A stretch of DNA of 24,208 nucleotides from a virus (IMGVR_UViG_2579778956_000001:1-24208), one strand, 5' to 3'. Shown: positions 1-21,476, counted from the first letter of the stretch. The notes: generated from the letters alone by a model not told the origin. Numbers and translations are program-made.

Positions 1-1053
1 TTACGGGGTAATGCCAACCGCTGCCGCCACTTTGTCGCCACTTGGCAGCGTTGCCAGAGGATTGAAACGGAGCGCCGTTTCCAGATGATCCGGTGCCAGA
101 TGTGCGTAACGCATAGTCATTTTTATATCGTGGTGTCCGAGAATTTTTTGTAAGGCCAGAATGTTTCCACCCGACATCATGAAGTGCGCCGCAAACGTAT
201 GGCGCAGAACGTGTGTGAGTTGACCGCGAGGGAGCACGATAGACGTTTTTTCCATCACGGATAAAAATTGAAAATAGCAGTCTGTGAAGAAATTGAACCC
301 ATCAAGCGCCATGATCTCTTCGTAAAGCTCTTTACTGATAGGGATGCTTCTGTTTTTCTTCCCCTTCGTTCTTACAAAGGTAATTCGGTATTTGGTCACC
401 TGTGAACGAGTAAGATTTACGGCTTCTCGCCAGCGTGCGCCTGTGCTTAAGCATATCTTAACTACCAGTGCCAGAATTGGGTCCTGACGTTTGCAATCAG
501 CCAGTAATTCAACAATCTGCTCATGGGTAAGCCATGCCATCTCTTTTTCTGCGATGGTGAATTTTCGCATGTTCTCCAGTGGGTTCGGATACGACCATTC
601 GCCCAGGCGGGATAGTTCGCTAAAAACACTACTTAGATAGCTTTGCTCCAGGTTAATGGTGACCGGGCTTGCTCCTTTCTTCCATTTCTCGCTGAAGTAG
701 ATCTCACCTGTCAGGCGTTTATCTCGATAGTGGGCAAACATTTTAGAGGTTAGATCAGTTGCAAGGGGATTGCCCAGAGCGTCAACCATCAGCAGCAATT
801 TGTCATAGACATGCTGCCCAGCTGTCAGTGATTTACCATGTAGTTTGAACCATAGCTCAACCACGTCTTTCAGTGTTCGACGATCCACTGATTCACCTAG
901 CCAGGGCTTTGCTTCGGTTTCTTCCATCGTGTGACGCTCAAAAGCCAGTGCTTCGCCTTTGGTGGCGAATTGTTTACGCACACGACGTCCACTACGTCCG
1001 GCGGGGTAACATTCGCAAAGCCATTTTCCTGTGGTGAGTTTTCGTACTGCCAT
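1..1053 (-). CDS. int: P2/186-family tyrosine integrase (site-specific recombinase)
   Basis: 350-aa ORF with the stop codon at window positions 1-3. Contains LSTGARWREA, FVRTKGKK, HVLRHTFAAHFMMSGG, LQKILGHHD and MRYAHL motifs typical of P2-type integrases (catalytic R..HxxR..Y). Sits at the prophage end next to the repressor, as in P2/186. Confidence 0.9.
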   Translation of the reverse strand: MAVRKLTTGKWLCECYPAGRSGRRVRKQFATKGEALAFERHTMEETEAKPWLGESVDRRTLKDVVELWFKLHGKSLTAGQHVYDKLLLMVDALGNPLATDLTSKMFAHYRDKRLTGEIYFSEKWKKGASPVTINLEQSYLSSVFSELSRLGEWSYPNPLENMRKFTIAEKEMAWLTHEQIVELLADCKRQDPILALVVKICLSTGARWREAVNLTRSQVTKYRITFVRTKGKKNRSIPISKELYEEIMALDGFNFFTDCYFQFLSVMEKTSIVLPRGQLTHVLRHTFAAHFMMSGGNILALQKILGHHDIKMTMRYAHLAPDHLETALRFNPLATLPSGDKVAAAVGITP

Positions 1054-2833: not shown

Positions 2834-3430
2834 TCAATTTGAAACTATTGTACTTCTTATACAAGCAACCACTTCAATATCAGAAAATGCACATTCAAAG
2901 CTATTCTCTGTAGTTGTAATTTTAATCATACCTTTTGGAAGCTTTGTGATTTTTCGAATGGAATAGGTTCCGTCGATGTTGATTAACCAGTGTCCATCAA
3001 GTACTTCAGAAAATTTTTGATCACAAATGTATGTGACAAGCCCATCCTGAATAACAATTGGTGATGAAAGATTTGCAGGAAGAAATGATGAATCGAATAC
3101 ATATGAACCATCTTCAATCATTTTGCCTGCGGTAAGGCGAAACTTGGGAAGCTCTTCTGTGGCTACTGTCAGCGAGCTTTGCTTAAGTCCTTGCCCGGTG
3201 GTTAACCATTTCAGTGAGGTTCCTGTTTCAAGAGCACATTGGATTATCCAGTCTGCAGGAAACGTATCCCGCAAATACCTGTTCGCCAGAGTGCTTTTTG
3301 ATACTTCCAAGTGATCAGCTAAAGCCTGTCGTGTCGTAAAGCCATAAGCTTCGACTAATCGCTCAATCGCAGCCTTACCACCTTTATTGGGATTTATTTT
3401 GATCTCACTTGGGTACTTTGATGTTGACAT
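2834..3430 (-). CDS. cI: 186-type CI immunity repressor (N-terminal HTH, C-terminal oligomerisation domain)
   Basis: 198-aa ORF. N-terminal LVEAYGFTTRQALADHLEVSKSTLANRYLRD...ALETGTSLKWLTTGQG resembles the phage-186 CI HTH domain. Divergent from the apl/cII genes and adjacent to int. No LexA/S24-type Ala-Gly cleavage site or G-D-S-M motif seen. Confidence 0.75.
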   Translation of the reverse strand: MSTSKYPSEIKINPNKGGKAAIERLVEAYGFTTRQALADHLEVSKSTLANRYLRDTFPADWIIQCALETGTSLKWLTTGQGLKQSSLTVATEELPKFRLTAGKMIEDGSYVFDSSFLPANLSSPIVIQDGLVTYICDQKFSEVLDGHWLINIDGTYSIRKITKLPKGMIKITTTENSFECAFSDIEVVACIRSTIVSN

Positions 3431-5330: not shown

Positions 5331-6184
5331 GCACCATCCTGAAATGGGCGGGAAATAAAACTGCCATAATGTCCGAACTGAAAAAACATCTTCCTGCTGG
5401 CCCGCGACTGGTTGAACCTTTCGCGGGTTCCTGTGCTGTGATGATGGAGACGGATTATCCCAGCTATCTGGTTGCGGATATTAATCCTGATTTAATCAAC
5501 CTCTATAAAAAGGTTGCCGCTGATTGTGAATCGTTTATATCTCGCGCCAGAGTTTTATTTGAGATCGCAAACAGGGAGGTGGCTTATTACAACATAAGGC
5601 AGGAGTTTAATTACTCAACTGAAATTACTGATTTCATGAAAGCGGTATATTTCCTGTATCTCAATCGTCACGGTTACCGTGGTTTATGTCGCTATAACAA
5701 GAGCGGGCATTTCAACATTCCCTACGGTAATTATAAAAATCCGTATTTTCCTGAAAAAGAAATTCGTGCATTTGCAGTAAAAGCCCAGCGGGCAACGTTT
5801 ATCTGCGCCAGCTTTGATGAAACGCTGGCGATGTTGAAGGCGGGGGATGTGGTGTATTGCGATCCGCCGTATGACGGTACGTTTTCCGGCTATCACACTG
5901 ACGGCTTCACTGAAGATGACCAGTATCACCTGGCATGTGTTCTTGAACATCGGTCATCAGAAGGACATCCGGTCATTGTTTCTAACAGTGACACATCCCT
6001 GATCCGTTCGCTGTATCGCAATTTTACTCACCACTACATCAAGGCAAAACGCAGCATCGGTGTGGCAGCTGGCGAGGGTAAATCAGCAACAGAAATCATT
6101 GCTGTTTCCGGGCCGCGCTGCTGGGTGGGATTTGATTATTCGCGTGGCGTGGATAGTTCTGCCGTGTACGGAGTACGTGCATGA
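5327..6184 (+). CDS. dam: Dam-family N6-adenine DNA methyltransferase (orphan, phage-encoded)
   Basis: Start at ATG 5327 (SD GGAGG 5315-5319; ATGA overlap with the TraR stop). ILKWAGNK near the N-terminus, [23 protein letters not shown] and the catalytic DPPY motif closely parallel E. coli Dam. No restriction gene adjacent. Confidence 0.9.
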
Positions 6185-8595
6185 GTCATGCCGATATGAA
6201 CAACTGCTGCGGCTTTAACGAAGCTGCCGCATCGTTCTCATGGAACAGCCCGAAAAAGGCCATTAACCCTTATCTGGACCCGGCGGAAGTTGCGCCGGTT
6301 TCTACGCTTTCAAACCTGATCACTCTGTACGCTGCCGATAACGAGCAGGAACAGCTGCGCCGCGAGGCACTGAGTGATCAGGTCTGGGAGCGTTATTTCT
6401 TTAATGAATCCCGTGATCCTGTCCAGCGCGAAATGGAGCAGGATAAGCTCATTAGCCGGGCAAAGCTGGCGCATGAGCAGCAGCGTTTTAATCCAGACAT
6501 GGTCATTCTGGCTGACGTCAACGCCCAGCCTTCCCATATCAGCAAGCCGCTGATGCAACGTATTGAATATTTCAGCAGCCTGGGCAGGCCAAAGGCTTAT
6601 TCCCGCTATTTGCGTGAGACGATTAAGCCATGTCTGGAACGACTGGAGCATGTCCGCGACTGTCAGCTATCCACTTCTTTTCGCTTTATGGCAAGCCATG
6701 AAGGGCTGGATGGCCTGCTTATCCTGCCTGAAATGAGTCAGGATCAGGTGAAGCGCCTGTCTACCCTTGTCGCTGCGCATATGAGCATGTGCCTTGATGC
6801 AGCTTGTGGCGATTTGTATGCCACCGATGATGTTAAGCCAGAAGAAATCCGCAAGACATGGGAAAAGGTGGCAGCAGAAACCCTGCGTCTGGATGTCATC
6901 CCGCCTGCGTTTGAGCAACTCCGTAGGAAAAGAAACCGCCGTAAACCAGTGCCCTATGAACTCATTCCGGGTTCGCTGGCGCGTATGCTGTGCGCCGACT
7001 GGTGGTATCGGAAATTGTGGAAGATGCGTTGCGAATGGCGGGAAGAGCAGTTGCGTGCTGTCTGCCTGGTCAGCAAAAAAGCATCTCCCTATGTCAGCTA
7101 TGAAGCCGTGATGCATAAACGTGAGCAGCGCCGTAAGTCGCTGGAGTTTTTCCGTTCTCATGAACTGGTGAACGAAGACGGCGACACGCTGGATATGGAA
7201 GATGTGGTAAACGCCAGTAGTAGCAACCCGGCGCATCGCCGCAATGAGATGATGGCATGTGTTAAAGGTCTGGAGCTTATCGCGGAAATGCGCGGTGACT
7301 GCGCCGTTTTCTACACCATCACCTGTCCGTCACGTTTCCATTCCACGCTAAATAACGGCAGGCCCAACCCGACCTGGACAAATGCGACGGTAAGACAAAG
7401 CAGTGATTATCTGGTCGGCATGTTTGCTGCATTTCGTAAGGCGATGCACAAAGCCGGATTGCGCTGGTATGGCGTGCGGGTGGCTGAGCCGCATCATGAC
7501 GGTACAGTTCACTGGCACCTGTTGTGTTTTATGCGCAAAAAAGATCGCCGCGCCATTACTGCTTTGTTGCGTAAGTTTGCCATTCGTGAAGACCGCGAGG
7601 AACTGGGTAATAACACAGGACCACGCTTTAAGTCTGAGTTGATTAACCCGCGCAAAGGTACGCCAACAAGCTACATCGCGAAATACATCAGTAAGAACAT
7701 TGACGGGTGTGGTCTGGCTGGCGAGATCAGCAAGGAAACGGGTAAATCCCTGCGTGATAACGCTGAATACGTTAATGCCTGGGCGTCTCTGCATCGTGTT
7801 CAGCAATTCCGCTTCTTTGGCATTCCGGGGCGTCAGGCTTACCGTGAACTGCGATTGCTGGCTGGTCAGGCGGCAAGGCAACAGGGGGACAAAAAAGCAG
7901 GTGCGCCGGTACTGGATAACCCGCGCCTTGATGCCATTCTGGCTGCTGCTGATGCTGGTTGTTTTGCCACCTACATCATGAAGCAGGGTGGCGTACTGGT
8001 TCCCCGCAAATATCACCTCATCAGAACTGCTTATGAAATCAACGAAGAGCCGACCGCCTATGGCGATCACGGCATTCGTATTTATGGCATCTGGTCACCT
8101 ATTGCAGAGGGCAAGATCTGCACTCATGCCGTGAAGTGGAAAATGGTTCGTAAGGCCGTTGACGTTCAGGAGGCGGCAGCCGACCAGGGCGCTTGCGCCC
8201 CTTGGACTCGTGGCAATAACTGTCCCCTTGCTGAAAATTTGTACCAACAAGGGAAAGACAAATCAGCTGATGGAGATACCAGAACGGATATCACCCGCAT
8301 GGATGACAAGGAGTTGCACGATTACCTGCACAGTATGAGCAAAAAAGAGCGCCGGGAACTGGCAGCAAGGTTACGCCTGGTGAAACCGAAACGGCGTAAA
8401 GACTACAAACAACGAATTACAGACCATCAGCGACTGCAGCTCGTGTATGAACTGAAGTCCAGGGGATTTGATGGCAGCGAGAAAGAGGTCGATTTACTGC
8501 TTCGCGGCGGCAGTATTCCGTCAGGAGCAGGCCTGCGTATCTTCTATCGGAACCAGCGTTTGCAGGAAGATGATAAGTGGCGAAACCTGTATTAA
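6181..8595 (+). CDS. A: Replication initiation protein gpA (rolling-circle replication endonuclease, HUH family)
   Basis: 804-aa ORF. HUH-like VHWHLLCF and twin-tyrosine SYIAKYISK motifs. ATGA overlap with the dam stop. Size and position match P2 gene A. Confidence 0.9.
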
Positions 8596-9106: not shown

Positions 9107-10267
9107 ATGGATCTGGCTAAAGTTGAAGAACGCGTCCGAAGAGTCATAGGGACAATGGAGTCTGCCGAGCTTGATGAATATTTTTGGGGTAAGCGCTCGG
9201 GTTTGGGAGACTCATTACCTCCGTATTATCTCGTTTATTTTCTTTTGGTAGATTTACTGAAATTTAAAAATCGTGGGGTTGATGAGAAGATTTCTTTTTC
9301 TATCCCAGTCCGGATTGATGGGACTGTCGTAATTATAGAACATCGTAAACTTGGTTTAGATATATTTATCAAGAGTGATGATGATATAGAGCAAGCTAAA
9401 ACTGTTTTGAGACATATTTGCGCAGGGGTTAAAGCTGCTACGAAATTTTTTGACTCGCTTGCAGACAATGCAGCAAAGACTTCAAATCTAAATGTTAATA
9501 ACAATGCTAATTCTCTTTATGATAGGTTTTGCTATTTTTTAGAGCTATATAAACAGAAGCTTGATGAAGTTGCTGCTGGCCAAGAGTCTAAACTGGAAGT
9601 TGATAGTGAGTTTAAGTCTGATAATTTTTTCAGCCTGTTACAATCCACTTTTGAACAATCAAATAAGATAATTGAACTCCGAAGAGAGGCTATGTGGTTA
9701 GCAACGTCTGCAATTGAGTCATTTTTCAATTGGACCGAGCATGTTTTCATTCTTATTGCAATCTTGAAGGGTGAGATAAAAAATGGGAATGATGTGGCTG
9801 ATAAAGTTGGGAAAGAATGGGGGGAGAAATTCAAATTAGCCATTGATATTAACTCTTCCAGTCTAAAATCATTCTATGATCGTTTACTTATACTCAGAAA
9901 ACAGGTGCGTAATTTTGTAGCCCATGGCGCCTTCGGTAAGGATGGGCAAGCATTGGAATTTCACTCAAGTGTAGGGGCTGTGCCACTATTGCTGCCTCAT
10001 CGAGAAAATAAAGAACGTTTCAAGTTTGGAAATGGTGTGCATTTTTTGGCACCTGAAGCAATGCAATTAATTAACGATTTTCTTGAAAATTTGTGGCAGG
10101 GAGAACTGTCCCCAGCAAAAATTTATATTGAATCTGGATGTCCTTTAATACTATCTTACGTAACTAATGGAACCTATGCGGAGGCGATGAAATCAGAAAG
10201 GAATATGGACTTATTGGTTAATTACTTAACTCGTGAGATGGATAATGCCGCAAACATGGATTGGTAA
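9107..10267 (+). CDS. Hypothetical protein with HEPN-like R-N-x3-H motif (candidate RNase-type defence/abortive-infection effector)
   Basis: ORF with ATG at 9107 (alternative GTG at 9098; SD-like AAGG at 9092-9095, about 11 nt upstream). AT-rich codon usage. Contains LRKQVRNFVAHG, which fits the HEPN consensus R-[NSH]-x3-H. No other domain recognised. Lies in the gpA-Q hotspot. Confidence 0.65.
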   Translation: MDLAKVEERVRRVIGTMESAELDEYFWGKRSGLGDSLPPYYLVYFLLVDLLKFKNRGVDEKISFSIPVRIDGTVVIIEHRKLGLDIFIKSDDDIEQAKTVLRHICAGVKAATKFFDSLADNAAKTSNLNVNNNANSLYDRFCYFLELYKQKLDEVAAGQESKLEVDSEFKSDNFFSLLQSTFEQSNKIIELRREAMWLATSAIESFFNWTEHVFILIAILKGEIKNGNDVADKVGKEWGEKFKLAIDINSSSLKSFYDRLLILRKQVRNFVAHGAFGKDGQALEFHSSVGAVPLLLPHRENKERFKFGNGVHFLAPEAMQLINDFLENLWQGELSPAKIYIESGCPLILSYVTNGTYAEAMKSERNMDLLVNYLTREMDNAANMDW

Positions 10268-10594
10268 ACTCTAGGTGCGGGTTACAAACACACAAAAAAT
10301 CTTCCTGAGTTAGGTGTTATCCCAACCCAAGGCTGTGTCAGGAAAACTTCATATGGCGCATGAGATCGCATGATAGTATGACGATCGTTTTCGCTGATGC
10401 CAGCCTGAGCTGGCGGGCTGTTGCATATGTCATGCAGGCGCATGAAAACCACTGCATAAAGCGGGTAGGCGTGGCGGGGATACGAGCGCGCGCTTGTGGC
10501 TTTGAATACTCAAATCATGTAATGTTAATTGTCCAAGCTCAGATGTTATTTTAGAATCGTAGTTCACTAGAACTGTGTTAATTGGGAAGTATTC

Positions 10595-11845
10595 ATGGAT
10601 AAACAACGTGCTTCACAAGTTTTTGTGCCTGGCGGTATGCCGAAATTGACTTATGTTGAGCGCTCTGAAGGAGAGGTTCATGGAAAACTGGAGAGTGCTA
10701 AAGATAATTTATGTAAGTTAGTGACTTTAACTGGGCAAACAAAGTCTGGTAAGACTGTAATTACAAGAATGGTATTCCCAGTCATGGACGATGATGTTGT
10801 ATGGATTGACGGTGGGAGTATTACAACTGAAGATGATATTTGGGAGCAGGTATTAGAAAAACTAAATGGCTACCATAGTATTGAAGTTAATTCTGGAGAA
10901 AATAGTGCTATTGCAGTTAGTGGTAAGGTATCGGGGACCGCAAGTGCATTCGTTGTTAAAGGTACAGGTGAGGCTGGTTTAGTTCAGACGGATGGAAAGT
11001 CAAATGGTAATAAAAAATCGCGAACGATATCCGCAAAAAGTTCTGCACTAAAAGTTCTCTCTCAAACCAAGTCTAGTCTTATAATTGATGACTTTCATTA
11101 CCTTGATCGTGACCTACAAGGTAACTTTATTAGAGCGATAAAACCATTAGTTTTTGATGGAGTACCAGTTGTACTGATAGCCATTCCACATCGAAGATAT
11201 GATGCTGTAAAAGTTGAAAAAGAAATTACCGGACGGCTAGAAAATATTTCCATGCCTTCGTGGGAAATGGATGAACTAAAACAAATAGCAAAAGTGGGAT
11301 TTCCTCTGTTAAACATGGAAGTTAGTGATTCAGTAATTGATAAAATTGCCAATGAATCATTGGGAAGCCCTCATTTAATGCAAGAGTTTTGCAAGGCTAT
11401 ATGCTTAGCAAATAATGTTAAAGAAACTTTGCCGAGTAAGTTAGTTATTAATTCTTTAGATGATGATATTTTTAGAAAGGTTGCAGAATCCACTGGGAAA
11501 ATAGTATTTGATAAGTTAGCTAGTGGCCCTAATCAGCGAACTGACAGAATTCCTAGAAAACTGAAAAGTGGTGAGGAAGTAGATATATATAAAGTTGTAT
11601 TATATGCATTGTCACATATGAAACCAGGAATGCAAAGTATTCAGTATGAGGAGTTAAGATCAGCCATACGCGAACTGGTGCAAGATGCTCCTCCACAAGC
11701 TCATGAGGTTACTCGTGTTATAGAAAAAATGGCTAAAATAGCTGCTACGGAAGAAGCTTCAACTCCTGTAATAGATTGGGATAAGGAGGACCGAAAGTTG
11801 CATATTACTGATCCATTTTTTGCTTTTTATCTAAAATGGCGATAA
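10595..11845 (+). CDS. P-loop NTPase (Walker A/B ATPase), candidate defence-system ATPase
   Basis: 416-aa ORF with SD GGGAAG upstream. Walker A LTGQTKSGKT (about residue 45) and Walker B-like hhhhDD (SLIIDDFHYLD). AT-rich. No nuclease (Toprim/HNH) motif recognised, so not an obvious Old/Gabija-type protein. Confidence 0.8.
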   Translation: MDKQRASQVFVPGGMPKLTYVERSEGEVHGKLESAKDNLCKLVTLTGQTKSGKTVITRMVFPVMDDDVVWIDGGSITTEDDIWEQVLEKLNGYHSIEVNSGENSAIAVSGKVSGTASAFVVKGTGEAGLVQTDGKSNGNKKSRTISAKSSALKVLSQTKSSLIIDDFHYLDRDLQGNFIRAIKPLVFDGVPVVLIAIPHRRYDAVKVEKEITGRLENISMPSWEMDELKQIAKVGFPLLNMEVSDSVIDKIANESLGSPHLMQEFCKAICLANNVKETLPSKLVINSLDDDIFRKVAESTGKIVFDKLASGPNQRTDRIPRKLKSGEEVDIYKVVLYALSHMKPGMQSIQYEELRSAIRELVQDAPPQAHEVTRVIEKMAKIAATEEASTPVIDWDKEDRKLHITDPFFAFYLKWR

Positions 11846-11877: not shown

Positions 11878-12915
11878 CTAATTTGAATGAAGTTTATATT
11901 CTTCGAACTGTATCACTTTTTCTTTTAACCAAACATTTAACTCTTCAAATCTTTTTTGCAATGGTATTAGTTCATTGCGTACAAATACATTACTTGCCTT
12001 CTCCACATCCCCAAACCCCCCAACATTATTTGGCATTATCCCCATCATCTGTGGCGGCACGCGGTGTGCCGCCATCATGTCATCGCGACTAACATTTTTG
12101 ATATTCAGAAATTCATCCTTCGCTGCGACTTCTGACAACGGGATAATCTGAAGTCCGTCTTTTTTACCATTAGGCGAGTACATAAACAGATTGCGGAAGT
12201 TACCCGGACCTTTGGCGCTTTTCATTGCGTTGCGGAGGTTGTTCACATCCTCCTGGTTCTGCGCGGCATCGGTCATGTACATGATGAAGCCGGCATGACT
12301 GCCGTTAATGTAATACTTGCGGCGGAACAGCGTGGCGGACTCGTTGAGCAAAGCGGATGGGATGGCAGAAAGATAGCCGGGCAGGCCGTAGATCTCCTGG
12401 TTGATGTCCGGTTCCATCAGATGAAAAATGCTGCCTTTCGTGAACTGATACGGCTGGGTTGTCATACCGTATTGCACAAACCAGTAGGTATCCAGGTCTA
12501 ACCCGCGTCGGGTGTATTTTGCCAGCGCAGGCTCAAGGGCGATAACTTCACCGAATCGGTTCGTGCGTTTCTCCAGGTAGGCGTTACCAAATACCAGATA
12601 GTCCTGTACAAAACGCGAAAAAGCCTGTTGGCTGAGCAGCGGATGAGGGATATAGGTACTGGTCAGAATGTTGCACTTTACTGCAATCGGGGAACTGTGA
12701 TGCACGGCAGCCCGGAAGGTGCGCGCCAGTCCGTCAAAACTTACGGGTGGCTCGTACCAACACTCCATCTGTACGCATTCCACATAGTCCAGCAGTTCGC
12801 GGCGGTCCAGAACAGGAACGGGATCACCGAAGCTGAATGCTTCGGCTGAAGTCTGGCTTTTATGCTGGATCTGTTTCGTCGACGCAGCGCGGTTCTTCTT
12901 ACTCTTTCCCATCAA
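11878..12915 (-). CDS. Q: Portal vertex protein gpQ
   Basis: 345-aa ORF; size and position (upstream of and translationally coupled to the terminase gene) match P2 gene Q. Start overlaps the terminase stop. Confidence 0.85.
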   Translation of the reverse strand: MMGKSKKNRAASTKQIQHKSQTSAEAFSFGDPVPVLDRRELLDYVECVQMECWYEPPVSFDGLARTFRAAVHHSSPIAVKCNILTSTYIPHPLLSQQAFSRFVQDYLVFGNAYLEKRTNRFGEVIALEPALAKYTRRGLDLDTYWFVQYGMTTQPYQFTKGSIFHLMEPDINQEIYGLPGYLSAIPSALLNESATLFRRKYYINGSHAGFIMYMTDAAQNQEDVNNLRNAMKSAKGPGNFRNLFMYSPNGKKDGLQIIPLSEVAAKDEFLNIKNVSRDDMMAAHRVPPQMMGIMPNNVGGFGDVEKASNVFVRNELIPLQKRFEELNVWLKEKVIQFEEYKLHSN

Positions 12916-14678
12916 AAAATCTCCACAATATTGCTGGTATTGGCGGACTCGCCCTGCAGCGGTTCGTTAAACAGTGCGTGCATTGTTGCCCAGGCCAGAT
13001 CGGCATGGCTGGCTTCTTCGCTGCGGCTGGCTTCATAGGTCGGGCGGTTGCCACTGGCAGTGGTAGCGCGACGGATTGCCATAAATGACTGCGCAATGTC
13101 GGTGTGCCCGGCGTCAAACTCCAGACGGCGGTGGCTGATAATGTCGTAGGCCTTGAGTACCAGGGCGTTTTTAACATTGGGGTTGTAGACAAACTCCCGG
13201 ACGGCAGGAAAGAACGCTTTCACGTTCTCATAAACCCCGTGACCAACGCCGGTTGAGTCGATACCGATATAGGTCACGTTGTACTGTTCGGTCAGTTTTT
13301 TGATGGCGTCAGCCTGGGCGCGGAAGTCCATCCCGCGCCACTGGTGACGCTCAAGAATGCGGAACTTACCACCAGGCACGGCTGGCGGTGCCACCACCAC
13401 GCATCCGGCGCTGTCGCCGTTTTGCGTACCTTTTGCCGGGTCATAACCGATCCACACTTCGCGCCAGCCAAACGGGCGCAGAGCCAGTGCATGAAAGTCG
13501 GTCCAGACTTCCCAGCTGTCCACCATGCACGCCTGCAGCTCGCTGAGCGGAAATACGGACGCGAGATCGTCCACAAACTCGCACATCAGCAGGTTCTGGT
13601 ATTCGTCCGGGCTGTACTCCATGCGCAACTGGTCAAGGTCGAACAGGTTACAGCCGCCGCGCACCGCATCTTCCACGGTGACTATCTGGCGGTATTGCCC
13701 GTCTGCGCACAGCAGGCCGGGGGCCAGATTGCTGTGGGACAGGTCGATGTCCACCTTGTCGGCCTTGTTGCGCCCACGGTTGAACAGCGCACCGGACCAG
13801 AACGGATAAGCACTGTGTGTCAGGCTGGATGGCGTGGAAAAATAGGTTTGTCGCCATTTTTTGTGAATAGCCATACCGGAAGCCACTTTGCGCAGCTCCT
13901 GGAATTTCGGTATCCAGAAATATTCATCCAGATACAGGTTGCCGTGATAACTCTGGGCCGTGCGGGCATTGGTGCCGAGGAAGTAAAGCGTGGCCCCGTT
14001 AGGAAGCACCATCGGATCGCCTTTCAACTCCACCCCCACTTCTTTGGCGAAGTCGATGATGTACTGCTTAAAGACGTGGGCCTGTGCCTTGCTGGCGGAA
14101 AGGAAAATCTGGTTACGTCCGGTAAGCAGGGCGTCAATCAGGGCTTCACGGGCAAAGTAAAAGGTCGCGCCGATCTGGCGTGACTTCAGCAGGTTGCGGA
14201 TGCGGTTGGTTTTTCCGGCTTCCCACCAGTGGCGCTGGTAGTTGAACATGGAGGAATGGAAGATTTCTTCCAGCTTCTCAATCTGCTCATCGGTGAAAAC
14301 ATTCTTTTCCGGCTGACGGCGTGGGCCTTTATTGCGGTTGGCGACGTTAGGGTTTAAGTCGGCTTCGTTGCCGCCATTGTTAAACTTGCCGATCCGCGCG
14401 TGGCGCTCCGACTGGCGCGCCAGCAGGTCAATCTCTTTGAAATCTTTCCCTTCTTTGTGCTCCTTCATGATGAGCTGGCAGTAGCGTGCGGCGGTGGTGA
14501 GCTGCATCTGATCCAGCGGCCCATAGTCACCCCACTTGTCGCGTTTTTTCCAGCTGTGAACGGTTGCAACTTTCTCGCCCAGCATTTCAGCAATGCGGGC
14601 TACGCGGTATCCCTGAAAGTACAGCAGCATGGCCTGCCGACGGGGATCGAGATCTGCGGGTGTCAGTGTGGTGTTCAT
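12912..14678 (-). CDS. P: Terminase large (ATPase) subunit gpP
   Basis: 588-aa ORF (P2 gpP is about 590 aa), divergent from the scaffold gene O, with the Q gene immediately downstream in the same orientation. Confidence 0.9.
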   Translation of the reverse strand: MNTTLTPADLDPRRQAMLLYFQGYRVARIAEMLGEKVATVHSWKKRDKWGDYGPLDQMQLTTAARYCQLIMKEHKEGKDFKEIDLLARQSERHARIGKFNNGGNEADLNPNVANRNKGPRRQPEKNVFTDEQIEKLEEIFHSSMFNYQRHWWEAGKTNRIRNLLKSRQIGATFYFAREALIDALLTGRNQIFLSASKAQAHVFKQYIIDFAKEVGVELKGDPMVLPNGATLYFLGTNARTAQSYHGNLYLDEYFWIPKFQELRKVASGMAIHKKWRQTYFSTPSSLTHSAYPFWSGALFNRGRNKADKVDIDLSHSNLAPGLLCADGQYRQIVTVEDAVRGGCNLFDLDQLRMEYSPDEYQNLLMCEFVDDLASVFPLSELQACMVDSWEVWTDFHALALRPFGWREVWIGYDPAKGTQNGDSAGCVVVAPPAVPGGKFRILERHQWRGMDFRAQADAIKKLTEQYNVTYIGIDSTGVGHGVYENVKAFFPAVREFVYNPNVKNALVLKAYDIISHRRLEFDAGHTDIAQSFMAIRRATTASGNRPTYEASRSEEASHADLAWATMHALFNEPLQGESANTSNIVEIF

Positions 14679-14724
14679 GGCACAAACCTACAACCTTGAA
14701 TGAAGGCTTTCCCCGCCTGCGGTT

Positions 14725-14742
14725 TGTGTGGTTGTCGGTACA
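14725..14742. promoter_or_regulatory. TGT-N12-ACA dyad (Ogr/Delta-type late-promoter activator site) in the divergent P/O promoter region
   Basis: TGTgtggttgtcggtACA at 14725-14742 within the 142-bp P-O intergenic region, centred about 88 bp upstream of the O start codon. P2 late promoters carry a TGT-N12-ACA element near -55. Confidence 0.45.
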
Positions 14743-14820
14743 AATACCGCGCATTGTTTCACTGCCCCCATCACCGCAACCATAAGGCTCCAGTAAGTTT
14801 TTTCTAACGGAGCACGGCTC

Positions 14821-15459
14821 ATGACAGTGAAAGCAAAGCGTTTTCGCATCGGGGTGGAAGGTGCCACCACCGACGGACGCGAAATCCAGCGTGAATGGCT
14901 GGAACAGATGGCAGCCAGCTACAACCCGGCGGTGTATACCGCGCTGATTAACCTTGAGCACATCAAGTCTTATCTGCCGGACAGCACCTTTAACCGCTAC
15001 GGCAAGGTGACGGCGCTGTTTGCTGAAGAAATCAAGGAAGGTCCGCTGGCAGGCAAGATGGCGCTGTATGCCGACGTTGAGCCAACGGAGTCCCTGGTGG
15101 AACTGGTGAAAAAAGGCCAGAAATTATTCACATCTATGGAAGTTAGCCCGAAGTTCGCTGATACGGGCAAAGCCTACCTGGTCGGCCTGGCTGCCACTGA
15201 TGACCCTGCCAGTCTGGGCACTGAAATGCTGACATTCAGCGCCAGTGCAGCCCATAACCCGCTGGCAAACCGCAAGCAGAATCCCGCCAATCTTTTTACC
15301 GCTGCAGAGGAAACGGTGATCGAACTGGAAGAAATCCAGGATGACAAACCGTCCCTGTTTGCCCGTGTCACGGCGCTGTTCACCAAAAAAGAGCAGTCCG
15401 ATGACGCCCGGTTCTCTGATGTGCATAAGGCCGTGGAACAACTGGCAGGGGATCGTTGA
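14821..15459 (+). CDS. O: Capsid scaffolding protein gpO, C-terminally truncated at a deletion junction (likely nonfunctional)
   Basis: 212-aa ORF with an N-terminus of gpO type (FRIGVEGATTDGREI...YLVGLAATDDPASLGTE). P2 gpO is about 284 aa as I recall. The ORF ends in a short non-homologous tail (QLAGDR*) exactly where tail-tube homology begins in another frame. Confidence 0.75.
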   Translation: MTVKAKRFRIGVEGATTDGREIQREWLEQMAASYNPAVYTALINLEHIKSYLPDSTFNRYGKVTALFAEEIKEGPLAGKMALYADVEPTESLVELVKKGQKLFTSMEVSPKFADTGKAYLVGLAATDDPASLGTEMLTFSASAAHNPLANRKQNPANLFTAAEETVIELEEIQDDKPSLFARVTALFTKKEQSDDARFSDVHKAVEQLAGDR

Positions 15460-15904
15460 GTCGCTGACGCTGCCGAAATTTACCCGCAAATATGAGAAGT
15501 ATCGCGGCGGCGGAATGCCGGGTGCGGTGGATGTGGATCTGGGGCTTGATGACAGTGCGCTGGACACAGAATTTTCCATTGGTGGTACTGAATTGCTGCT
15601 GTTTAAACAGATGGGTAAAGCCACGGTGGATGGCATCCAGCTGCGCTTTACCGGCTCTATTCAGCGTGACGATACCGGGGAAGTGCAGGCCGTGGAGCTT
15701 GTCGTGCGTGGACGTCACAAAGAAGTGGATTCCGGCGAGTGGAAGACGGGCGAAAGCAACACCACCAAAGTGACCAGTACCAACAGCTACGCGAAGCTGA
15801 CCATCAATGGTGAGGTGCTCTATGAAGTGGACCTTATCAACATGGTGGAAATTGTGGACGGTGTGGACCTGATGGAAGCGCACCGCAACGCCCTCGGCCT
15901 CTGA
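15446..15904 (+). pseudogene. FII: Tail tube protein FII, 5'-truncated fragment fused downstream of gpO
   Basis: Frame of ORF 15341..15904. Homology to the P2 major tail tube protein begins about at QGIVESLTLPKFTRKYEKYRGGGMPGAVDVDLGLDD and runs to the C-terminus (...EAHRNALGL). About 25 N-terminal residues and any start codon/SD are missing; the upstream part of the ORF overlaps gpO out of frame. Confidence 0.7.
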
Positions 15905-15958
15905 TATATCTGAACGGCGCGGGATACCGCGCCAGAACCCAATTGACAGGACAGCAAA

Positions 15959-16261
15959 ATGAGCGATAAGCAGACTGAAAAGACCATTCAACTGGATACC
16001 CCCATCAAGCGCGGTAAAACAGAAATCACCGAAATTGTGCTGCGTAAACCGCAGTCCGGTGCGCTGCGCGGTACACGCCTGCAGGCCATTATGGATATGG
16101 ATGTGAACGCGATGATGACCGTGATCCCCCGCATCTCCAGTCCGGCACTGACTGCACAGGAAATTGCAGAGATGGACCCGGCAGATCTCACTGCCATGTC
16201 GGTTGAGGTTGTCACTTTTTTGTTGAAGAAGTCGGTGCTTGCCGGTTTACCGACAGCCTGA
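15959..16261 (+). CDS. E: Tail assembly chaperone gpE
   Basis: 100-aa ORF directly upstream of the tape-measure gene, containing a slippery heptamer near its 3' end, as in P2 E/E' (analogous to lambda G/GT). Confidence 0.8.
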   Translation: MSDKQTEKTIQLDTPIKRGKTEITEIVLRKPQSGALRGTRLQAIMDMDVNAMMTVIPRISSPALTAQEIAEMDPADLTAMSVEVVTFLLKKSVLAGLPTA

Positions 16262-16395
16262 CGGTTGACGATCTGGTGGCAGATATCGCCACCATTTTTC
16301 ACTGGCCGCCATCCGTTACTGACGTTATGCCGCTGACCGAAGTGCTGGAATGGCGGTATAAAGCGATTCAGAGAAGCGGGGCCAACGATGAGTGA
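15959..16395 (+). CDS. E': gpE+E' extended chaperone produced by programmed -1 ribosomal frameshift
   Basis: After a -1 slip at T TTT TTG (16216-16222) the reading frame stays open to TGA at 16393-16395, overlapping the T start codon (16388). Translated by hand: ...FVEEVGACRFTDSLTVDDLVADIATIFHWPPSVTDVMPLTEVLEWRYKAIQRSGANDE*. Confidence 0.7.
16216..16222 (+). other. Programmed -1 frameshift slippery heptamer (X XXY YYZ = T TTT TTG)
   Basis: TTTTTTG, in frame as ac[T TTT TTG] in gene E. Conserved arrangement upstream of tape-measure genes. Confidence 0.7.
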
Positions 16396-19300
16396 TAACA
16401 ACCTGCGTCTGCGGGTCATTCTTAATGCGGTTGACAAGCTCACCCGCCCATTTCGATCTGCGCAGGCCAGTTCAAGAGAACTGGCTGCTGCTGTCAAAAA
16501 ATCCCGCGATGCAATAAAGCAGCTTGATCAGGCCGGGAGCAGTCTGGACAGCTTCCGAAAGCTGCAGGCAGAAAATCAGAAATTAGGCGACAGGCTGAAC
16601 TATGCCCGCCAGCGTGCAAATTTGCTCAGTCAGGAACTGGGAGCGATGGGGCCGCCTTCGCAACGTCAGGTTGTTGCTCTGGGCCGTCAACGGCTGGCTG
16701 TTCAGCGCCTGGAAGAACGCCAGAAAAAGCTGCAGCAGCAGACGGCGCTTGTGCGTGCTGAACTGTACCGGGCGGGAATTTCTGCGAAAGACGATGCGGG
16801 AGCAACTGCCCGTTTAGCCCGTGAAACATCACGTTATAACCAGGAACTTTCGAAACAGGAGGCGCGGCTGAAGCGACTGGGGGAAGCTCAGCGCAGGATG
16901 AATGCAGCGCGTGCCAGTTATGCCCGTTCGCTGGAGGTGCGTGATCGTATTGCAGGTGCCGGAGCCACCACCACGGCTGCAGGGCTGGCAATGGGTGCGC
17001 CAGTGATGGCGGCAGTAAAAAGCTATACCAGCATGGAAGATGCCATGAAAGGTGTGGCAAAGCAGGTCAATGGTCTGCGTGACGATAATGGCAACCGCAC
17101 TGCACGTTTTTATGAAATGCAGGATGCCATCAAGGCTGCCAGCGAACAGTTGCCGATGGAAAACGGTGCGGTGGACTTCGCTGCACTGGTTGAAGGTGGT
17201 GCGCGCATGAACGTCGCAAACCCTGACGACAGCTGGGAAGATCAGAAACGTGACCTGCTGGCCTTCGCCAGTACGGCAGCAAAGGCGGCAACAGCCTTTG
17301 AGCTGCCAGCGGATGAACTGTCAGAAAGTCTGGGGAAAATCGCCCAGCTCTACAAAATTCCTACCCGCAATATTGAACAGCTCGGTGATGCGCTGAACTA
17401 TCTGGATGATAACGCCATGTCGAAAGGGGCAGACATCATTGATGTCATGCAACGCCTGGGCGGTGTGGCTGATCGTCTGGATTATCGTAAAGCGGCGGCG
17501 CTGGGTTCCACCTTTCTGACACTGGGCGCTGCGCCAGAGGTTGCAGCCAGTGCAGCAAACGCGATGGTGCGTGAATTGTCCATTGCCACCATGCAAAGCA
17601 AGAGTTTCTTTGAAGGGATGAATCTGCTGAAACTCAATCCTGAAGTGATTGAAAAGCAGATGACGAAGGATGCGATGGGAACTATCCAGCGCGTACTGGA
17701 GAAGGTGAACGCACTGCCGCAGGATAAACGTCTGTCTGCCATGACCATGTTGTTTGGTAAAGAGTTTGGCGATGACGCGGCGAAACTGGCAAACAACCTG
17801 CCGGAACTGCAGCGCCAGCTAAAACTGACAGCGGGCAATGATGCGCTCGGCTCCATGCAGAAAGAATCCGACATTAACAAGGACTCACTTTCTGCGCAGT
17901 GGTTGCTGGTCAAAACCGGAGCGCAGAACACCTTCAGCAGCCTGGGCGAAACGCTGCGCCAGCCGCTGATGGATATTCTGTACACGGTGAAAAGCATCAC
18001 GGGGGCGTTGCGCCGCTGGGTGGAAGCTAACCCGGAACTGACAGGCACACTGATGAAAGTAGCCGCTGTGGTGGCTGCGGTTACCGTAGGCCTCGGAACC
18101 TTAGCGGTGGCGCTGGCTGCAGTGCTGGGGCCGCTGGCAGTGATTCATCTGGGATTCTCTGTGCTGGGTATCAAAACGTTACCTTCCGTTACGGCAGCAG
18201 TAACCCGAACCAGCAGCGCGTTGTCCTGGCTGGCTGGCGCACCACTGGCACTGCTGCGACGCGGGCTTGCTTCATCGGGCAACGCCGCAGGTTTACTTAC
18301 TGCGCCGTTGTCGTCTTTGCGCCGCACGGCATTACTGACGGGAAATGTCCTGAAAACTGTAGCAGGTGCGCCGGTTGCACTTTTGCGGTCTGGATTATCC
18401 GGTTTACGTGCTGTTGCTGTGATGTTTATGAATCCTCTGGCGGTACTGCGCGGTGGACTGGCCGCCGCAGGCACGGTGCTGCGAGTACTGGCATCTGGTC
18501 CACTGGCGATGCTGCGCGTTGCCCTGTATGCCGTATCTGGTCTGTTAGGTGCTCTGCTCAGTCCGATAGGTCTTGTGGTTACTGCACTGGCGGGCGTGGC
18601 GCTGGTTGTCTGGAAATACTGGCAACCCATCACCGCATTTCTTGGTGGCGTGGTGGAAGGATTCAAAGCGGCGGCAGGTCCCGTCAGTGAAGCATTCGAA
18701 CCGCTTAAGCCCGTGTTCCAGTGGATTGGCGACAAAGTACAGGCGCTGTGGGGCTGGTTTACTGATCTGCTGACGCCCGTTAAGTCGACCTCTGCCGAAC
18801 TGCAGAGTGCAGCGGCAATGGGGCGACGATTCGGGGAGGCACTGGCGGAAGGGCTAAATATGGTCATGCATCCGCTGGACTCCCTGAAATCCGGCGTTTC
18901 CTGGTTGCTGGAGAAGCTCGGCATTGTCAGTAAAGAGGCCGCAAAGGCAAAACTGCCGGAAAGCGTGACGCGTCAGCAACCTGCGACGGTGAATGCAGAC
19001 GGTAAAGTGATGATGCCATCGGGTGGTTTTCCATCATGGGGATATGGCTTTGCGGGGATGTATGACAGCGGCGGGTATATCCCGCGCGGGCAGTTTGGCA
19101 TCGTCGGTGAAAACGGGCCGGAAATTGTTAACGGCCCGGCAAATGTGACCAGCCGGAGAAATACAGCTGCACTGGCTGCCGTTGTTGCCGGAATGATGGG
19201 AGTTGCTGCCGCGCCAGCAGAGCTTCCACCGTTGCACCCTTTGGCACTTCCCGCGAAAGGTGGAGAAGCAATTGTGAGTCGCGCAGCCACTGTGCCGCTC

Positions 19301-19465
19301 GTTCAACGGATTGAGGCACCGACGCAGATCATCATTCAGACGCAGCCAGGACAAAGTGCGCAGGATATTGCGCGGGAGGTGGCACGCCAGCTTGATGAAC
19401 GTGAACGCAGGCTGAAGGCAAAAGCCAGGAGTAACTACAGCGATCAGGGGGGATACGACGCATGA
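16388..19465 (+). CDS. T: Tail tape measure protein gpT
   Basis: 1025-aa ORF; coiled-coil-rich N-terminal half, Ala/Gly/Leu-rich hydrophobic repeats in the middle. Follows E/E' and precedes U and D. Confidence 0.9.
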   Translation: MSDNNLRLRVILNAVDKLTRPFRSAQASSRELAAAVKKSRDAIKQLDQAGSSLDSFRKLQAENQKLGDRLNYARQRANLLSQELGAMGPPSQRQVVALGRQRLAVQRLEERQKKLQQQTALVRAELYRAGISAKDDAGATARLARETSRYNQELSKQEARLKRLGEAQRRMNAARASYARSLEVRDRIAGAGATTTAAGLAMGAPVMAAVKSYTSMEDAMKGVAKQVNGLRDDNGNRTARFYEMQDAIKAASEQLPMENGAVDFAALVEGGARMNVANPDDSWEDQKRDLLAFASTAAKAATAFELPADELSESLGKIAQLYKIPTRNIEQLGDALNYLDDNAMSKGADIIDVMQRLGGVADRLDYRKAAALGSTFLTLGAAPEVAASAANAMVRELSIATMQSKSFFEGMNLLKLNPEVIEKQMTKDAMGTIQRVLEKVNALPQDKRLSAMTMLFGKEFGDDAAKLANNLPELQRQLKLTAGNDALGSMQKESDINKDSLSAQWLLVKTGAQNTFSSLGETLRQPLMDILYTVKSITGALRRWVEANPELTGTLMKVAAVVAAVTVGLGTLAVALAAVLGPLAVIHLGFSVLGIKTLPSVTAAVTRTSSALSWLAGAPLALLRRGLASSGNAAGLLTAPLSSLRRTALLTGNVLKTVAGAPVALLRSGLSGLRAVAVMFMNPLAVLRGGLAAAGTVLRVLASGPLAMLRVALYAVSGLLGALLSPIGLVVTALAGVALVVWKYWQPITAFLGGVVEGFKAAAGPVSEAFEPLKPVFQWIGDKVQALWGWFTDLLTPVKSTSAELQSAAAMGRRFGEALAEGLNMVMHPLDSLKSGVSWLLEKLGIVSKEAAKAKLPESVTRQQPATVNADGKVMMPSGGFPSWGYGFAGMYDSGGYIPRGQFGIVGENGPEIVNGPANVTSRRNTAALAAVVAGMMGVAAAPAELPPLHPLALPAKGGEAIVSRAATVPLVQRIEAPTQIIIQTQPGQSAQDIAREVARQLDERERRLKAKARSNYSDQGGYDA

Positions 19466-19947
19466 TGATGGTGCTGGGATTGTACGTGTTTATGCTGCGC
19501 ACCGTTCCGTATCAGGAACTGCAGTATCAACGCAGCTGGCGACATGCGGCTAACAGCCGGGTAAATCGTCGTCCGTCCACGCAGTTTCTGGGACCGGACA
19601 ACGACATGCTGACGCTTTCCGGTGTTCTTATGCCGGAGATAACAGGCGGCAGGCTGTCGTTGCTGGCACTGGAGCAGATGGCAGAACAGGGGAAAGCATG
19701 GCCTCTGATTGAAGGCAGCGGCACGATTTACGGCATGTATGTGATTGAGGGACTGAATCAGACTAAAACGGAGTTTTTCCGCGACGGTATGCCGCGCCGG
19801 ATTGAGTTCACCCTGTCGCTCAAACGGGTGGATGAATCCCTGTCCGATATGTTCGGTGATCTCAGTGCGCAGCTGAATAATCTGCAGGGAACGGCAACAT
19901 CAGCCTTAAGCGATATCAGTAAAACGGTGGGAGGGCTTCTGTCGTGA
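19462..19947 (+). CDS. U: Tail protein gpU
   Basis: 161-aa ORF; ATGA overlap with the T stop. Position between T and D as in P2. Confidence 0.8.
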   Translation: MMMVLGLYVFMLRTVPYQELQYQRSWRHAANSRVNRRPSTQFLGPDNDMLTLSGVLMPEITGGRLSLLALEQMAEQGKAWPLIEGSGTIYGMYVIEGLNQTKTEFFRDGMPRRIEFTLSLKRVDESLSDMFGDLSAQLNNLQGTATSALSDISKTVGGLLS

Positions 19948-21044
19948 ATTTCAGCTCTGAACTGCTTAACAAAGGCAACAAAACTCCGGCATTCAGCATC
20001 AGTATTGAAGGCAGAAATATCACCACTGTGCTGGACAACCGCCTGATGGGGCTGACGCTGACGGATAACCGGGGATTTGAAGCGGACCAGCTTGATCTGG
20101 AGCTGGACGACGCCGATGGAAAAATCGTGCTGCCGCGCCGTGGTGCGGTCATTACGCTGGCGCTGGGCTGGAAGGGGCAGCCGCTTTTCCCGAAAGGGGC
20201 ATTCACGGTGGACGAGATTGAACACACTGGCGCACCGGACCGCCTGACTATCCGGGCGCGAAGTGCTGATTTTCGGGAAACCCTGAATACCCGCCGTGAA
20301 AAATCTTGGCACAAGACCACCGTCGGGGAAGTGGTAAAGGAAATAGCCGCGCGTCACAAGCTGAAGATGGCGCTGGGTAAAGACCTGTCGGATAAGCCCG
20401 TGGAACATATAGACCAGACTAATGAGAGTGACGGCAGTTTTCTGATGCGGCTGGCGCGACAGTACGGTGCCATCGCGTCGGTGAAAAATGGCAATCTGCT
20501 ATTCATCCGGCAGGGGCAGGGCAAAAGCGCCACTGGTAAACCACTGCCAGTGATCACTATCACACGCAAGGACGGCGACAGTCACCGCTTTACCCTGGCA
20601 GATCGCGGAGCCTACACGGGCGTAATTGCCAGCTGGTTGCATACCCGCGAACCTGCGAAGAAAGAAAGCACCACGGTGAAGCGTAAGCGCAGAACTAAGA
20701 AGCAGAAGAAAGAGCCAGAAGCGAAGCAGGGCGATTACCTGGTGGGTACGGATGAAAACGTGCTGGTACTTAATCGCACTTATGCCAACCGGAGCAACGC
20801 CGAACGAGCGGCGAAAATGCAGTGGGAACGCCTGCAACGCGGCGTTGCGTCATTCTCGCTACAACTGGCAGAAGGGCGGGCAGATCTCTACACGGAAATG
20901 CCAGTGAAAGTCAGTGGCTTTAAACAGCCGATAGATGATGCGGAATGGACCATTACGACTCTGACGCATACCGTCAGCCCGGATAACGGTTTTACGACCA
21001 GTCTGGAGCTTGAAGTGAGGATTGATGATTTCGAAATGGAATGA
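19944..21044 (+). CDS. D: Tail protein gpD (late control gene D family)
   Basis: 366-aa ORF; GTG start overlapping the U stop (GTGA). Position between U and ogr as in P2. Confidence 0.85.
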   Translation: MNFSSELLNKGNKTPAFSISIEGRNITTVLDNRLMGLTLTDNRGFEADQLDLELDDADGKIVLPRRGAVITLALGWKGQPLFPKGAFTVDEIEHTGAPDRLTIRARSADFRETLNTRREKSWHKTTVGEVVKEIAARHKLKMALGKDLSDKPVEHIDQTNESDGSFLMRLARQYGAIASVKNGNLLFIRQGQGKSATGKPLPVITITRKDGDSHRFTLADRGAYTGVIASWLHTREPAKKESTTVKRKRRTKKQKKEPEAKQGDYLVGTDENVLVLNRTYANRSNAERAAKMQWERLQRGVASFSLQLAEGRADLYTEMPVKVSGFKQPIDDAEWTITTLTHTVSPDNGFTTSLELEVRIDDFEME

Positions 21045-21134: not shown

Positions 21135-21353
21135 ATGATGATTTGCCCACTGTGTGGAAGTGCCGCCCATACTCGCAGCAGTTTTCAGGTATCTTCATTG
21201 ACCAAAGAGCGTTACAACCAGTGCCAGAATATTAACTGCAGCCATACTTTTGTAACCCATGAAACTTTTGTTCGTTCGATTGCAACGCCAAAAGAGTCAA
21301 ATCCGGTTCAGCCGCATCCAATGAAATCAGGACAGGTGGCGCTCTCTCTTTGA
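21135..21353 (+). CDS. ogr: Ogr/Delta-family zinc-finger late-gene transcription activator
   Basis: 72-aa product from ATG 21135 (SD GGAGA 21121-21125): MMICPLCGSAAHTRSS...KERYNQCQNINCSHTF..., which has the Ogr C-x2-C...C-x4-C pattern and the same length as P2 Ogr. Last gene before the host junction. Confidence 0.8.
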   Translation: MMICPLCGSAAHTRSSFQVSSLTKERYNQCQNINCSHTFVTHETFVRSIATPKESNPVQPHPMKSGQVALSL

Positions 21354-21433
21354 CGCTGCCGCCATTTTGTCGCCATCGTTAAAAAACAGTGCTTCTAACG
21401 TCATGATTTTAAACGGCATAAATTTCAGGCAAC

Positions 21434-21476
21434 AAAAAACCCATCAACCTTGAACCGAAATGGCGGGGTTGATGGG
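21434..21476 (-). terminator. Putative intrinsic terminator downstream of ybjL (minus-strand sense)
   Basis: Inverted repeat CCCATCAACC (21440-21449) / GGTTGATGGG (21467-21476), preceded on the plus strand by AAAAAA (21434-21439), a U-run on the minus strand. The loop is long (17 nt), so confidence is modest. Confidence 0.4.

Follow-up and report, generated by a model that had tools for sequence, protein, structure and literature searches.

E. coli B carries a defective P2-related prophage whose recombination with P2 yields P2 Hy dis, and in E. coli K-12 ogrK-yegZ (D') is a cryptic P2 remnant. The element described here is like these two in being a P2-family prophage killed by deletion and of the kind that can donate genes to incoming P2-like phages, but its integration site is a different one and the decay of the K-12 remnant is far more advanced. 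Specifically, in comparison with the classical cryptic P2 remnants, the present element keeps more than 60% of the genome and has no second lesion. Defective P2-like prophages that keep intact defense genes have also been described as "uncharacteristic genomic regions" with P2 core markers (PMC13586616), and preferential loss of lytic functions is regarded as the norm (PMC7744054). The elements of the former study are similar to ours in that they derive from P2, have lost mobility or morphogenesis functions, and have intact defense genes as neighbors; however, they were found mostly via pseudogenized core genes in many genomes, whereas the present remnant shows one clean deletion in one assembly.

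The stretch of DNA analyzed here, which we refer to as the window (24,208 nucleotides), comes from an E. coli draft genome and contains a P2/186-like (Peduoviridae) prophage, inserted into the 3' end of rybB with rcdA on one side and ybjL on the other, and then genes of the host. Very probably, this prophage is a recent, strain-private remnant that arose by one internal deletion of ~12.6 kb at the pentanucleotide GGAAC and that makes no particles and causes no lysis by itself. The intact elements with which it can be compared are the L725 and 64EVA prophages, found at the same rcdA-rybB-ybjL site, and the Peduoviridae phages 500465-1, Cartapus and KP12. Gene order and sequence are alike (95–99.8% DNA identity to Peduoviridae records, on both flanks of the junction), but all of these carry a 12.6-kb segment, O(3')-N-M-L-X-lysis-R-S-V-W-J-I-H-G-invertase-FI-FII(5'), that is missing in the remnant. 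64EVA also has the same 416-amino-acid cargo gene adjoining Q. "Intact" relatives such as 64EVA carry small lesions of their own: a small additional gene separates its attL from int, and its invertase and one inverted-fiber gene are annotated as frameshifted (L005 12193–12462, 36738–37149, 37180–37747). P2 itself (NC_001895) shares the divergent pP/pO promoters with one activator site and the arrangement of late genes in an O operon (O to S), a V operon (V to G) and an F operon (FI to D); it is only distantly related in DNA and, unlike the remnant, has C/cox immunity, and its cargo is different. In P2, fun(Z) lies between G and FI and old/tin between A and cos. The landmarks of the element outside the junction are as follows.

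1–1053, minus strand: integrase, intact, 100% identical to L725
1137–2813, minus strand: cargo 1, DUF4041/T5orf172 protein between int and CI; matches PD-Lambda-1 defense models, E 7e-120
2834–3430, minus strand: CI-type immunity repressor, intact
6181–8595, plus strand: A, replication endonuclease, intact
9107–11845, plus strand: cargo 2, in the A-Q (cos-proximal) hotspot; 386-amino-acid protein, cos, 416-amino-acid AAA ATPase
10435–10500, plus strand: cos-like packaging site, core GGCGTGGCGGGGATACGAG, by similarity to the cos annotated in phage Cartapus
11878–12915, minus strand: Q, portal protein, intact, Pfam Phage_portal
12912–14678, minus strand: P, terminase ATPase subunit, intact, 588 amino acids, 99.8% identical to L725
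15959–16392, plus strand: E and E' tail assembly chaperone genes, intact
16388–21044, plus strand: T (tape measure), U and D tail genes, all full length
21135–21353, plus strand: ogr/delta-type late activator gene, 100% identical to L725
21431–21509, minus strand: rybB sRNA gene, intact (Rfam RF00110, 105 bits), at the right end of the prophage

The assignment to the P2 family is based on both halves of the late region. Phage_portal, Terminase_5/6N/6C and Phage_GPO (Pfam) follow each other in P2 order and orientation, with divergent Q-P and O operons, and the tail module runs FII-E-E'-T-U-D and then ogr and att, with int and the repressor at the opposite end, again in the order of P2. The further Pfam matches are Phage_tube, Phage_TAC_7, PhageMin_Tail, Phage_P2_GpU, Phage_GPD, Ogr_Delta, Phage_integrase and Phage_CI_repr, and the immunity region is of the 186 type (CI/apl/CII/fil). 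In L725 a 14-nucleotide repeat, AACAAAAAACCCAT, stands at both ends of the prophage; its right copy corresponds to window 21431–21444, within the 3' end of rybB, and on this match AACAAAAAACCCAT at 21431–21444 is the predicted attR core and right boundary of the remnant. Transferring the L725 coordinates in the same way, the left copy would be expected ~87 nucleotides to the left of the window, and the remnant would measure ~21.5 kb, in comparison with 34.8 kb for the intact L725 prophage. The overlap of the att core with the 3' end of rybB indicates that this phage family inserts into the rybB terminator and regenerates it.

Two cargo loci accompany these phage genes, and both are AT-rich (35–38% GC, versus ~55% in the phage core). 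The first is a single gene of 36% GC that is 97.5% identical to the copy in the intact L725 prophage. The second lies in the hotspot between A and Q known from P2-like phages (Rousset et al., PMC9122126) and includes two genes. The 386-amino-acid protein (9107–10267, plus strand; 38% GC) is 99% conserved in the L725 prophage and has no match in Pfam or PADLOC; it is possibly an uncharacterized defense or accessory gene. The 416-amino-acid AAA ATPase (10595–11845, plus strand), between cos and Q, matches the PADLOC candidate PDC-S59 (E 1e-31) and is present in 7 of 5,426 complete E. coli genomes, always adjoining Q and at 99.9–100% identity. The sequence GGCGAGGCGGGGAAAGCAC, taken as that of P2 cos, has no match in the window within 3 mismatches, and cos was then located via the similarity to Cartapus, which is 84% over 169 nucleotides. 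The site thus divides the hotspot, with a cargo gene to its left and another to its right, so that in this family cargo flanks cos, as it does in phage Cartapus.

The sequence-only reading of this DNA had proposed that a deletion fused the scaffold gene O to the tail-tube gene FII, and alignment of the DNA with intact relatives confirms this and places the junction at 15435–15439. Window 12910–15437 corresponds to P-O of the intact phage 500465-1 (blastn) and window 15435–21042 to its FII-D, with 12,571 bp between the two blocks in the phage; the gap is 12,579 bp in L725 and 12,642 bp in 64EVA, both of which carry intact prophages at the identical chromosomal site. Because the flanks are 95–99.8% identical to intact phages over kilobases, the juxtaposition of O and FII is not a chance similarity. 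The closest relative of the left flank is 64EVA (99.57% over 5,088 nucleotides, with a single mismatch in the final 1.44 kb), whose O gene contains ...GCCGTGGAACTGGTC... and whose FII gene contains ...GACGGGAACAACTGG...; with ...GCCGTGGAACAACTGG... in the window, the crossover falls inside GGAAC. The flanks are collinear with L725 and 64EVA at the same att site, one contiguous block is missing, and no DNA replaces it; there is no IS, no IS end, no filler DNA and no run of Ns at the junction. The features that meet there are these.

14821–15459, plus strand: O', truncated capsid scaffold/protease gene; 206 of 277 native codons, then QLAGDR and TGA
15435–15439, plus strand: deletion junction, 5-nucleotide microhomology GGAAC, from three-way DNA alignments
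15437–15904, plus strand: 'FII, tail-tube gene without its start and first 15–16 codons, in frame 2

The breakpoints lie two-thirds into O and 46 nucleotides into FII. On the P2 proteins they fall close to residue 208 of the 284 in O and residue 17 of the 172 in FII. They were set from DNA alignments only, because tblastn ran the O match through the foreign tail and the FII match into out-of-frame O. The consequences for the two reading frames follow directly. The 212-amino-acid open reading frame at 14821–15459 matches Pfam Phage_GPO over positions 2–207 of 268 (E 1e-100) and, in frame 1, leaves the O sequence at ...DVHKAVE, continues with QLAGDR and stops at TGA (15457–15459), just as had been read from the sequence, which put the end of gpO similarity at about 15435 and the stop six unrelated codons on. 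On the other side, the frame ending at 15904 matches Phage_tube over positions 14–165 of 165 (E 3.5e-53), which establishes that 15446–15904 is tail-tube-related. The earlier claim that tail-tube similarity starts in another frame and without a start codon was correct; its position, about 15446, was not, since similarity begins at nucleotide 15435, with AAC at 15437 as first native codon, although a difference of ~10 nucleotides is immaterial. An intact FII of 171 amino acids (P0018) reads MALPRKLKHLNLFNDGNNWQG..., and the window joins it at ...NNWQG.... Out-of-frame ATGs at 15341 and 15401 open chimeric reading frames, and from the second of these the gene caller of the public record predicts a 167-amino-acid "Phage_tube" protein.

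It is informative to ask how much weight the five shared nucleotides can bear. In a random-breakpoint simulation with 187,954 pairs in the 64EVA prophage, at least 5 nucleotides of junctional identity occurred with P=0.006 and at least 3 nucleotides with P=0.055. The larger number depends on an ancestor with the GAA allele of O, which provides GGAAC; with the other allele, GAG, O and FII have only GGA (3 nucleotides) in common and P is ~0.055. The GAA allele is common, and many genomes match window 15286–15439 at 100%.

The missing block of ~12.6 kb amounts to 21 genes, from N to FI. When L725 prophage proteins were compared with the window (tblastn), no match was obtained for any of the 20 missing genes queried: N, M, L, X, holin, lysozyme, lysA-like, lysB, R, S, V, W, J, I, H, G, the two inverted fiber genes, the invertase and FI; lysC, annotated in the deleted interval, was outside this query set. 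The earlier statement that the genes from N to FI are gone is therefore borne out, with no homolog of those queried elsewhere in the window, and the losses comprise the small terminase subunit and the major capsid protein, the functions of head and tail completion, every lysis gene, and the baseplate, fibers and sheath. The same reading held that the deletion removed the second P2 cargo hotspot, Z/fun. This is right as to position, in that P2 has fun(Z) between G and FI, but in 500465-1, L725, Cartapus and 64EVA this interval holds an invertible tail-fiber segment and a DNA invertase, not defense cargo.

What was kept is int, apl/cox, CI, CII, A/ori, cos, Q, P, the distal tail genes, ogr and the two cargo loci, in agreement with the earlier claim that immunity, replication, integrase and cargo survive. 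Full-length, gapless matches with 95–100% protein identity to L725 (tblastn) were found for int, the DUF4041 protein, CI, the apl/cox-like protein, CII, fil, DUF5347, DUF2732, TraR, Dam, A, two small or unknown open reading frames, Q, P, E, E', T, U, D and ogr. Every retained gene is intact, and the remnant has no second lesion. If the definition of a complete prophage in PMC13586616 is applied, the Q-L capsid and packaging set is incomplete, with O cut and N, M and L without a match. The lysis cassette, tail completion, baseplate, fibers and sheath are missing as well. Judged by its own gene content, the remnant is predicted to be incapable of building capsid, sheath, baseplate, fibers or particles and of lysing its host, although another P2-like prophage in the same genome, if there is one, could complement it. 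With this caveat, the gene content supports the earlier description of a cryptic element that cannot form virions. CI immunity, PD-Lambda-1 and the PDC-S59 candidate presumably work as in an intact lysogen; that the cargo is expressed is something we infer.

Within the collections searched, the deletion is private to one strain. Among 5,426 complete E. coli genomes and 50,697 phage records, none covers more than 51% of a 300-nucleotide query centered on the junction, and every matching genome or phage record has O and FII far apart. The 24-mer that spans the junction, TAAGGCCGTGGAACAACTGGCAGG, is absent from GTDB species representatives and metagenome contigs, and an exact look-up of the truncated O protein leads to one contig, AYKE01000004.1 (224 kb; GCA_000511565.1). 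Among 15 billion collected proteins the two junction proteins are likewise confined to this contig, and draft E. coli assemblies were covered through the exact-protein look-up. A suspected O::W fusion in the 90% cluster of truncated O (window 14821–15456) was rejected, as its representative is a plain partial O fragment without W-derived sequence; the same cluster also lists many unrelated 119-amino-acid GPW/gp25 baseplate proteins, which looks like a clustering or indexing quirk. By flank, the best intact relatives are 64EVA (99.6% left, 98.3% right) and 500465-1 (94.9% left, 98.1% right). Since no intact relative is near-identical on both flanks, the deletion cannot be dated and its true ancestor is absent from the collections. 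A private junction together with full-length retained genes, among them P, Q, T, U and D, from which the host gains nothing, points to a recent private deletion and not to long-term domestication.

The question of domestication, here in the sense said to be that of Bobay et al. 2014, deserves attention in its own right, as the earlier reading considered the pattern consistent with a host that keeps the prophage for its cargo. The deletion would then have been selected or maintained, removing the killing functions and keeping superinfection immunity and two defense loci. Indeed, the whole lysis cassette is gone and int, CI, PD-Lambda-1 and the A-Q hotspot cargo are spared; genes for lytic functions are preferentially lost from incomplete prophages in models and surveys (PMC7744054), and defective P2-like elements with near-identical, apparently functional defense genes have been reported (PMC13586616), although the authors of the latter study leave open whether such remnants are domesticated. 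However, the late region is about half of the genome, so a random deletion of 12.6 kb would in most cases fall on these genes and by chance alone leave the cargo untouched. The same remnant does not recur across a lineage in the collections searched, the junction being found in one assembly and on one contig only, and in the one genome available the cargo is no better preserved than genes without conceivable benefit to the host (P, Q, E, T, U, D); useful and useless genes alike are whole. With no sign of differential decay or of vertical conservation, nothing indicates selection, and on this point the earlier claim is not supported. A recent neutral or mildly beneficial deletion fits the pattern equally well, and a single genome is uninformative on selection in either direction. 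We regard domestication as unlikely.

It is also worth considering that the remnant might be an incipient helper-dependent defense island. A heteroimmune P2-like helper phage would excise, replicate and package it, spreading the defense cargo in the manner of a satellite; by extension, the cargo could be donated to incoming phages by recombination. The parts that such a phage could use for mobilization or recombination are in place, namely the cos-like site at ~10435–10500 described above (core GGCGTGGCGGGGATACGAG), A/ori, intact int, apl/cox-like, CII, P and Q genes and a candidate Ogr-responsive late promoter. If true, this would be a snapshot of the first step by which a temperate phage becomes a satellite-like hitchhiker, spreading PD-Lambda-1 and the PDC-S59 candidate. 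We find the idea distinctly improbable, because the element has no hijacking genes and each of its genes is matched at full length in an ordinary intact prophage, because the event is private with no evidence of spread, and because ~21.5 kb is only ~62% of the 34.8-kb L725 prophage. Stable packaging of so short a genome in a full-size head is doubtful from what is generally known of P2 and P4 packaging. A P4-like or other satellite (with sid, psu, delta and alpha primase, in ~10–12 kb) was rejected on similar grounds in the comparison with intact prophages, given the size of ~21.5 kb and the gene counterparts: between int and ogr, all genes but the truncated O and FII have full-length counterparts in an intact P2-like prophage. 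An R-type tailocin was rejected as well, as sheath, baseplate, fibers and lysis genes are absent and the head genes Q and P are present.

A more prosaic possibility is that the strain has an intact prophage and that the assembly wrongly linked O to FII in this contig. The source, AYKE01000004.1, is a contig of a 2013-era whole-genome draft, and its junction is unique across all collections searched. Yet this junction sits deep inside a 224-kb contig, contains neither Ns nor filler, and belongs to a contig that the look-up lists in two samples. Furthermore, the two sides share 5 nucleotides only, far below the k-mer or overlap length of an assembler, which leaves no substrate for a repeat-induced false join. 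An assembly artifact is therefore very unlikely. Least credible of all, and in our view close to negligible, is a dedicated recombination (by a Gin/Cin-type invertase, by IS-adjacent deletion or by homologous recombination between two prophages), for although the relatives have a DNA invertase and an invertible fiber segment in the deleted interval and phage 500465-1 has IS fragments elsewhere, both ends of the deletion fall within coding sequence, that in O at a distance of 10 kb and that in FII at 1.4 kb from the invertible segment, no IS or inverted-repeat end stands at the junction, each flank follows O or FII without a single deviation as far as the 5-nucleotide overlap, and the two genes have no homology beyond it.

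The single internal deletion removed ~12.6 kb and fused O to FII at GGAAC with nothing inserted. A clean junction with short microhomology, and with no IS or recombinase sites, suggests RecA-independent illegitimate recombination, which may have proceeded by microhomology-mediated end joining or by template switching. Both processes are established in E. coli, which to our knowledge lacks Ku-type end joining.

The deletion also has a potential effect on the organization of the late operons. In the map of P2, the O operon is transcribed from pO, and FI, FII, E, E', T, U and D form an operon transcribed from pF. By analogy with this map, the deletion would have removed pV and pF and placed 'FII-E-E'-T-U-D behind pO, to be reached by read-through. 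A candidate activator site is available for such transcription:

14725–14742, plus strand: TGT-N12-ACA dyad in the P/O intergenic region, candidate Ogr-type activator site by motif and position

This dyad lies ~88 nucleotides upstream of the ATG of O, and the P2 record gives one activator site for pO and pP, ~95 nucleotides upstream; window-wide, the motif occurs 7 times against 5.6 expected, which is not above chance, so that it is the position that is suggestive. P2 pP/pO and the P/O intergenic region of the window differ so much in a global alignment that neither the activator site nor the transcription starts can be carried over from P2. A sigma-70 scan of 14600–16500 returned no promoter-like site, which is expected for activator-dependent late promoters and hence uninformative, and no terminator-like site was found between the stop of O' and E. 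Such an operon fusion is probably without phenotype in a repressed lysogen. Further downstream, at 16274–16294 (plus strand), a strong hairpin with a trailing T-run (TGGTGGCAGATATCGCCACCA TTTTT) sits directly past the stop codon of E and at the start of E', and scores as terminator-like. Being inside the tail operon and near the position of the P2 E/E+E' −1 frameshift, it may stimulate frameshifting or act as an attenuator.

Within the spectrum of P2-like elements, the remnant is an ordinary, strain-private deletion derivative of a common E. coli prophage, that is, a known type of prophage decay that has here been mapped precisely, and it raises no new question. For annotation, it follows that the prophage is defective, that O and FII are pseudogenes and that the predicted 167-amino-acid "tail tube protein" is a chimeric artifact; prophage-prediction tools that count hallmarks such as portal, terminase, tape measure and integrase could mis-score the remnant as intact. 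It is likewise a clean example of E. coli removing 12.6 kb at a 5-nucleotide microhomology. If sister isolates with the intact prophage exist, they would form with this strain a natural isogenic pair in which the fitness effect of "grounding" a defense-carrying prophage could be measured. In terms of the biology of the family, the element provides an example of the first lesion on the way from an active prophage to a cryptic remnant that still carries its defense genes.
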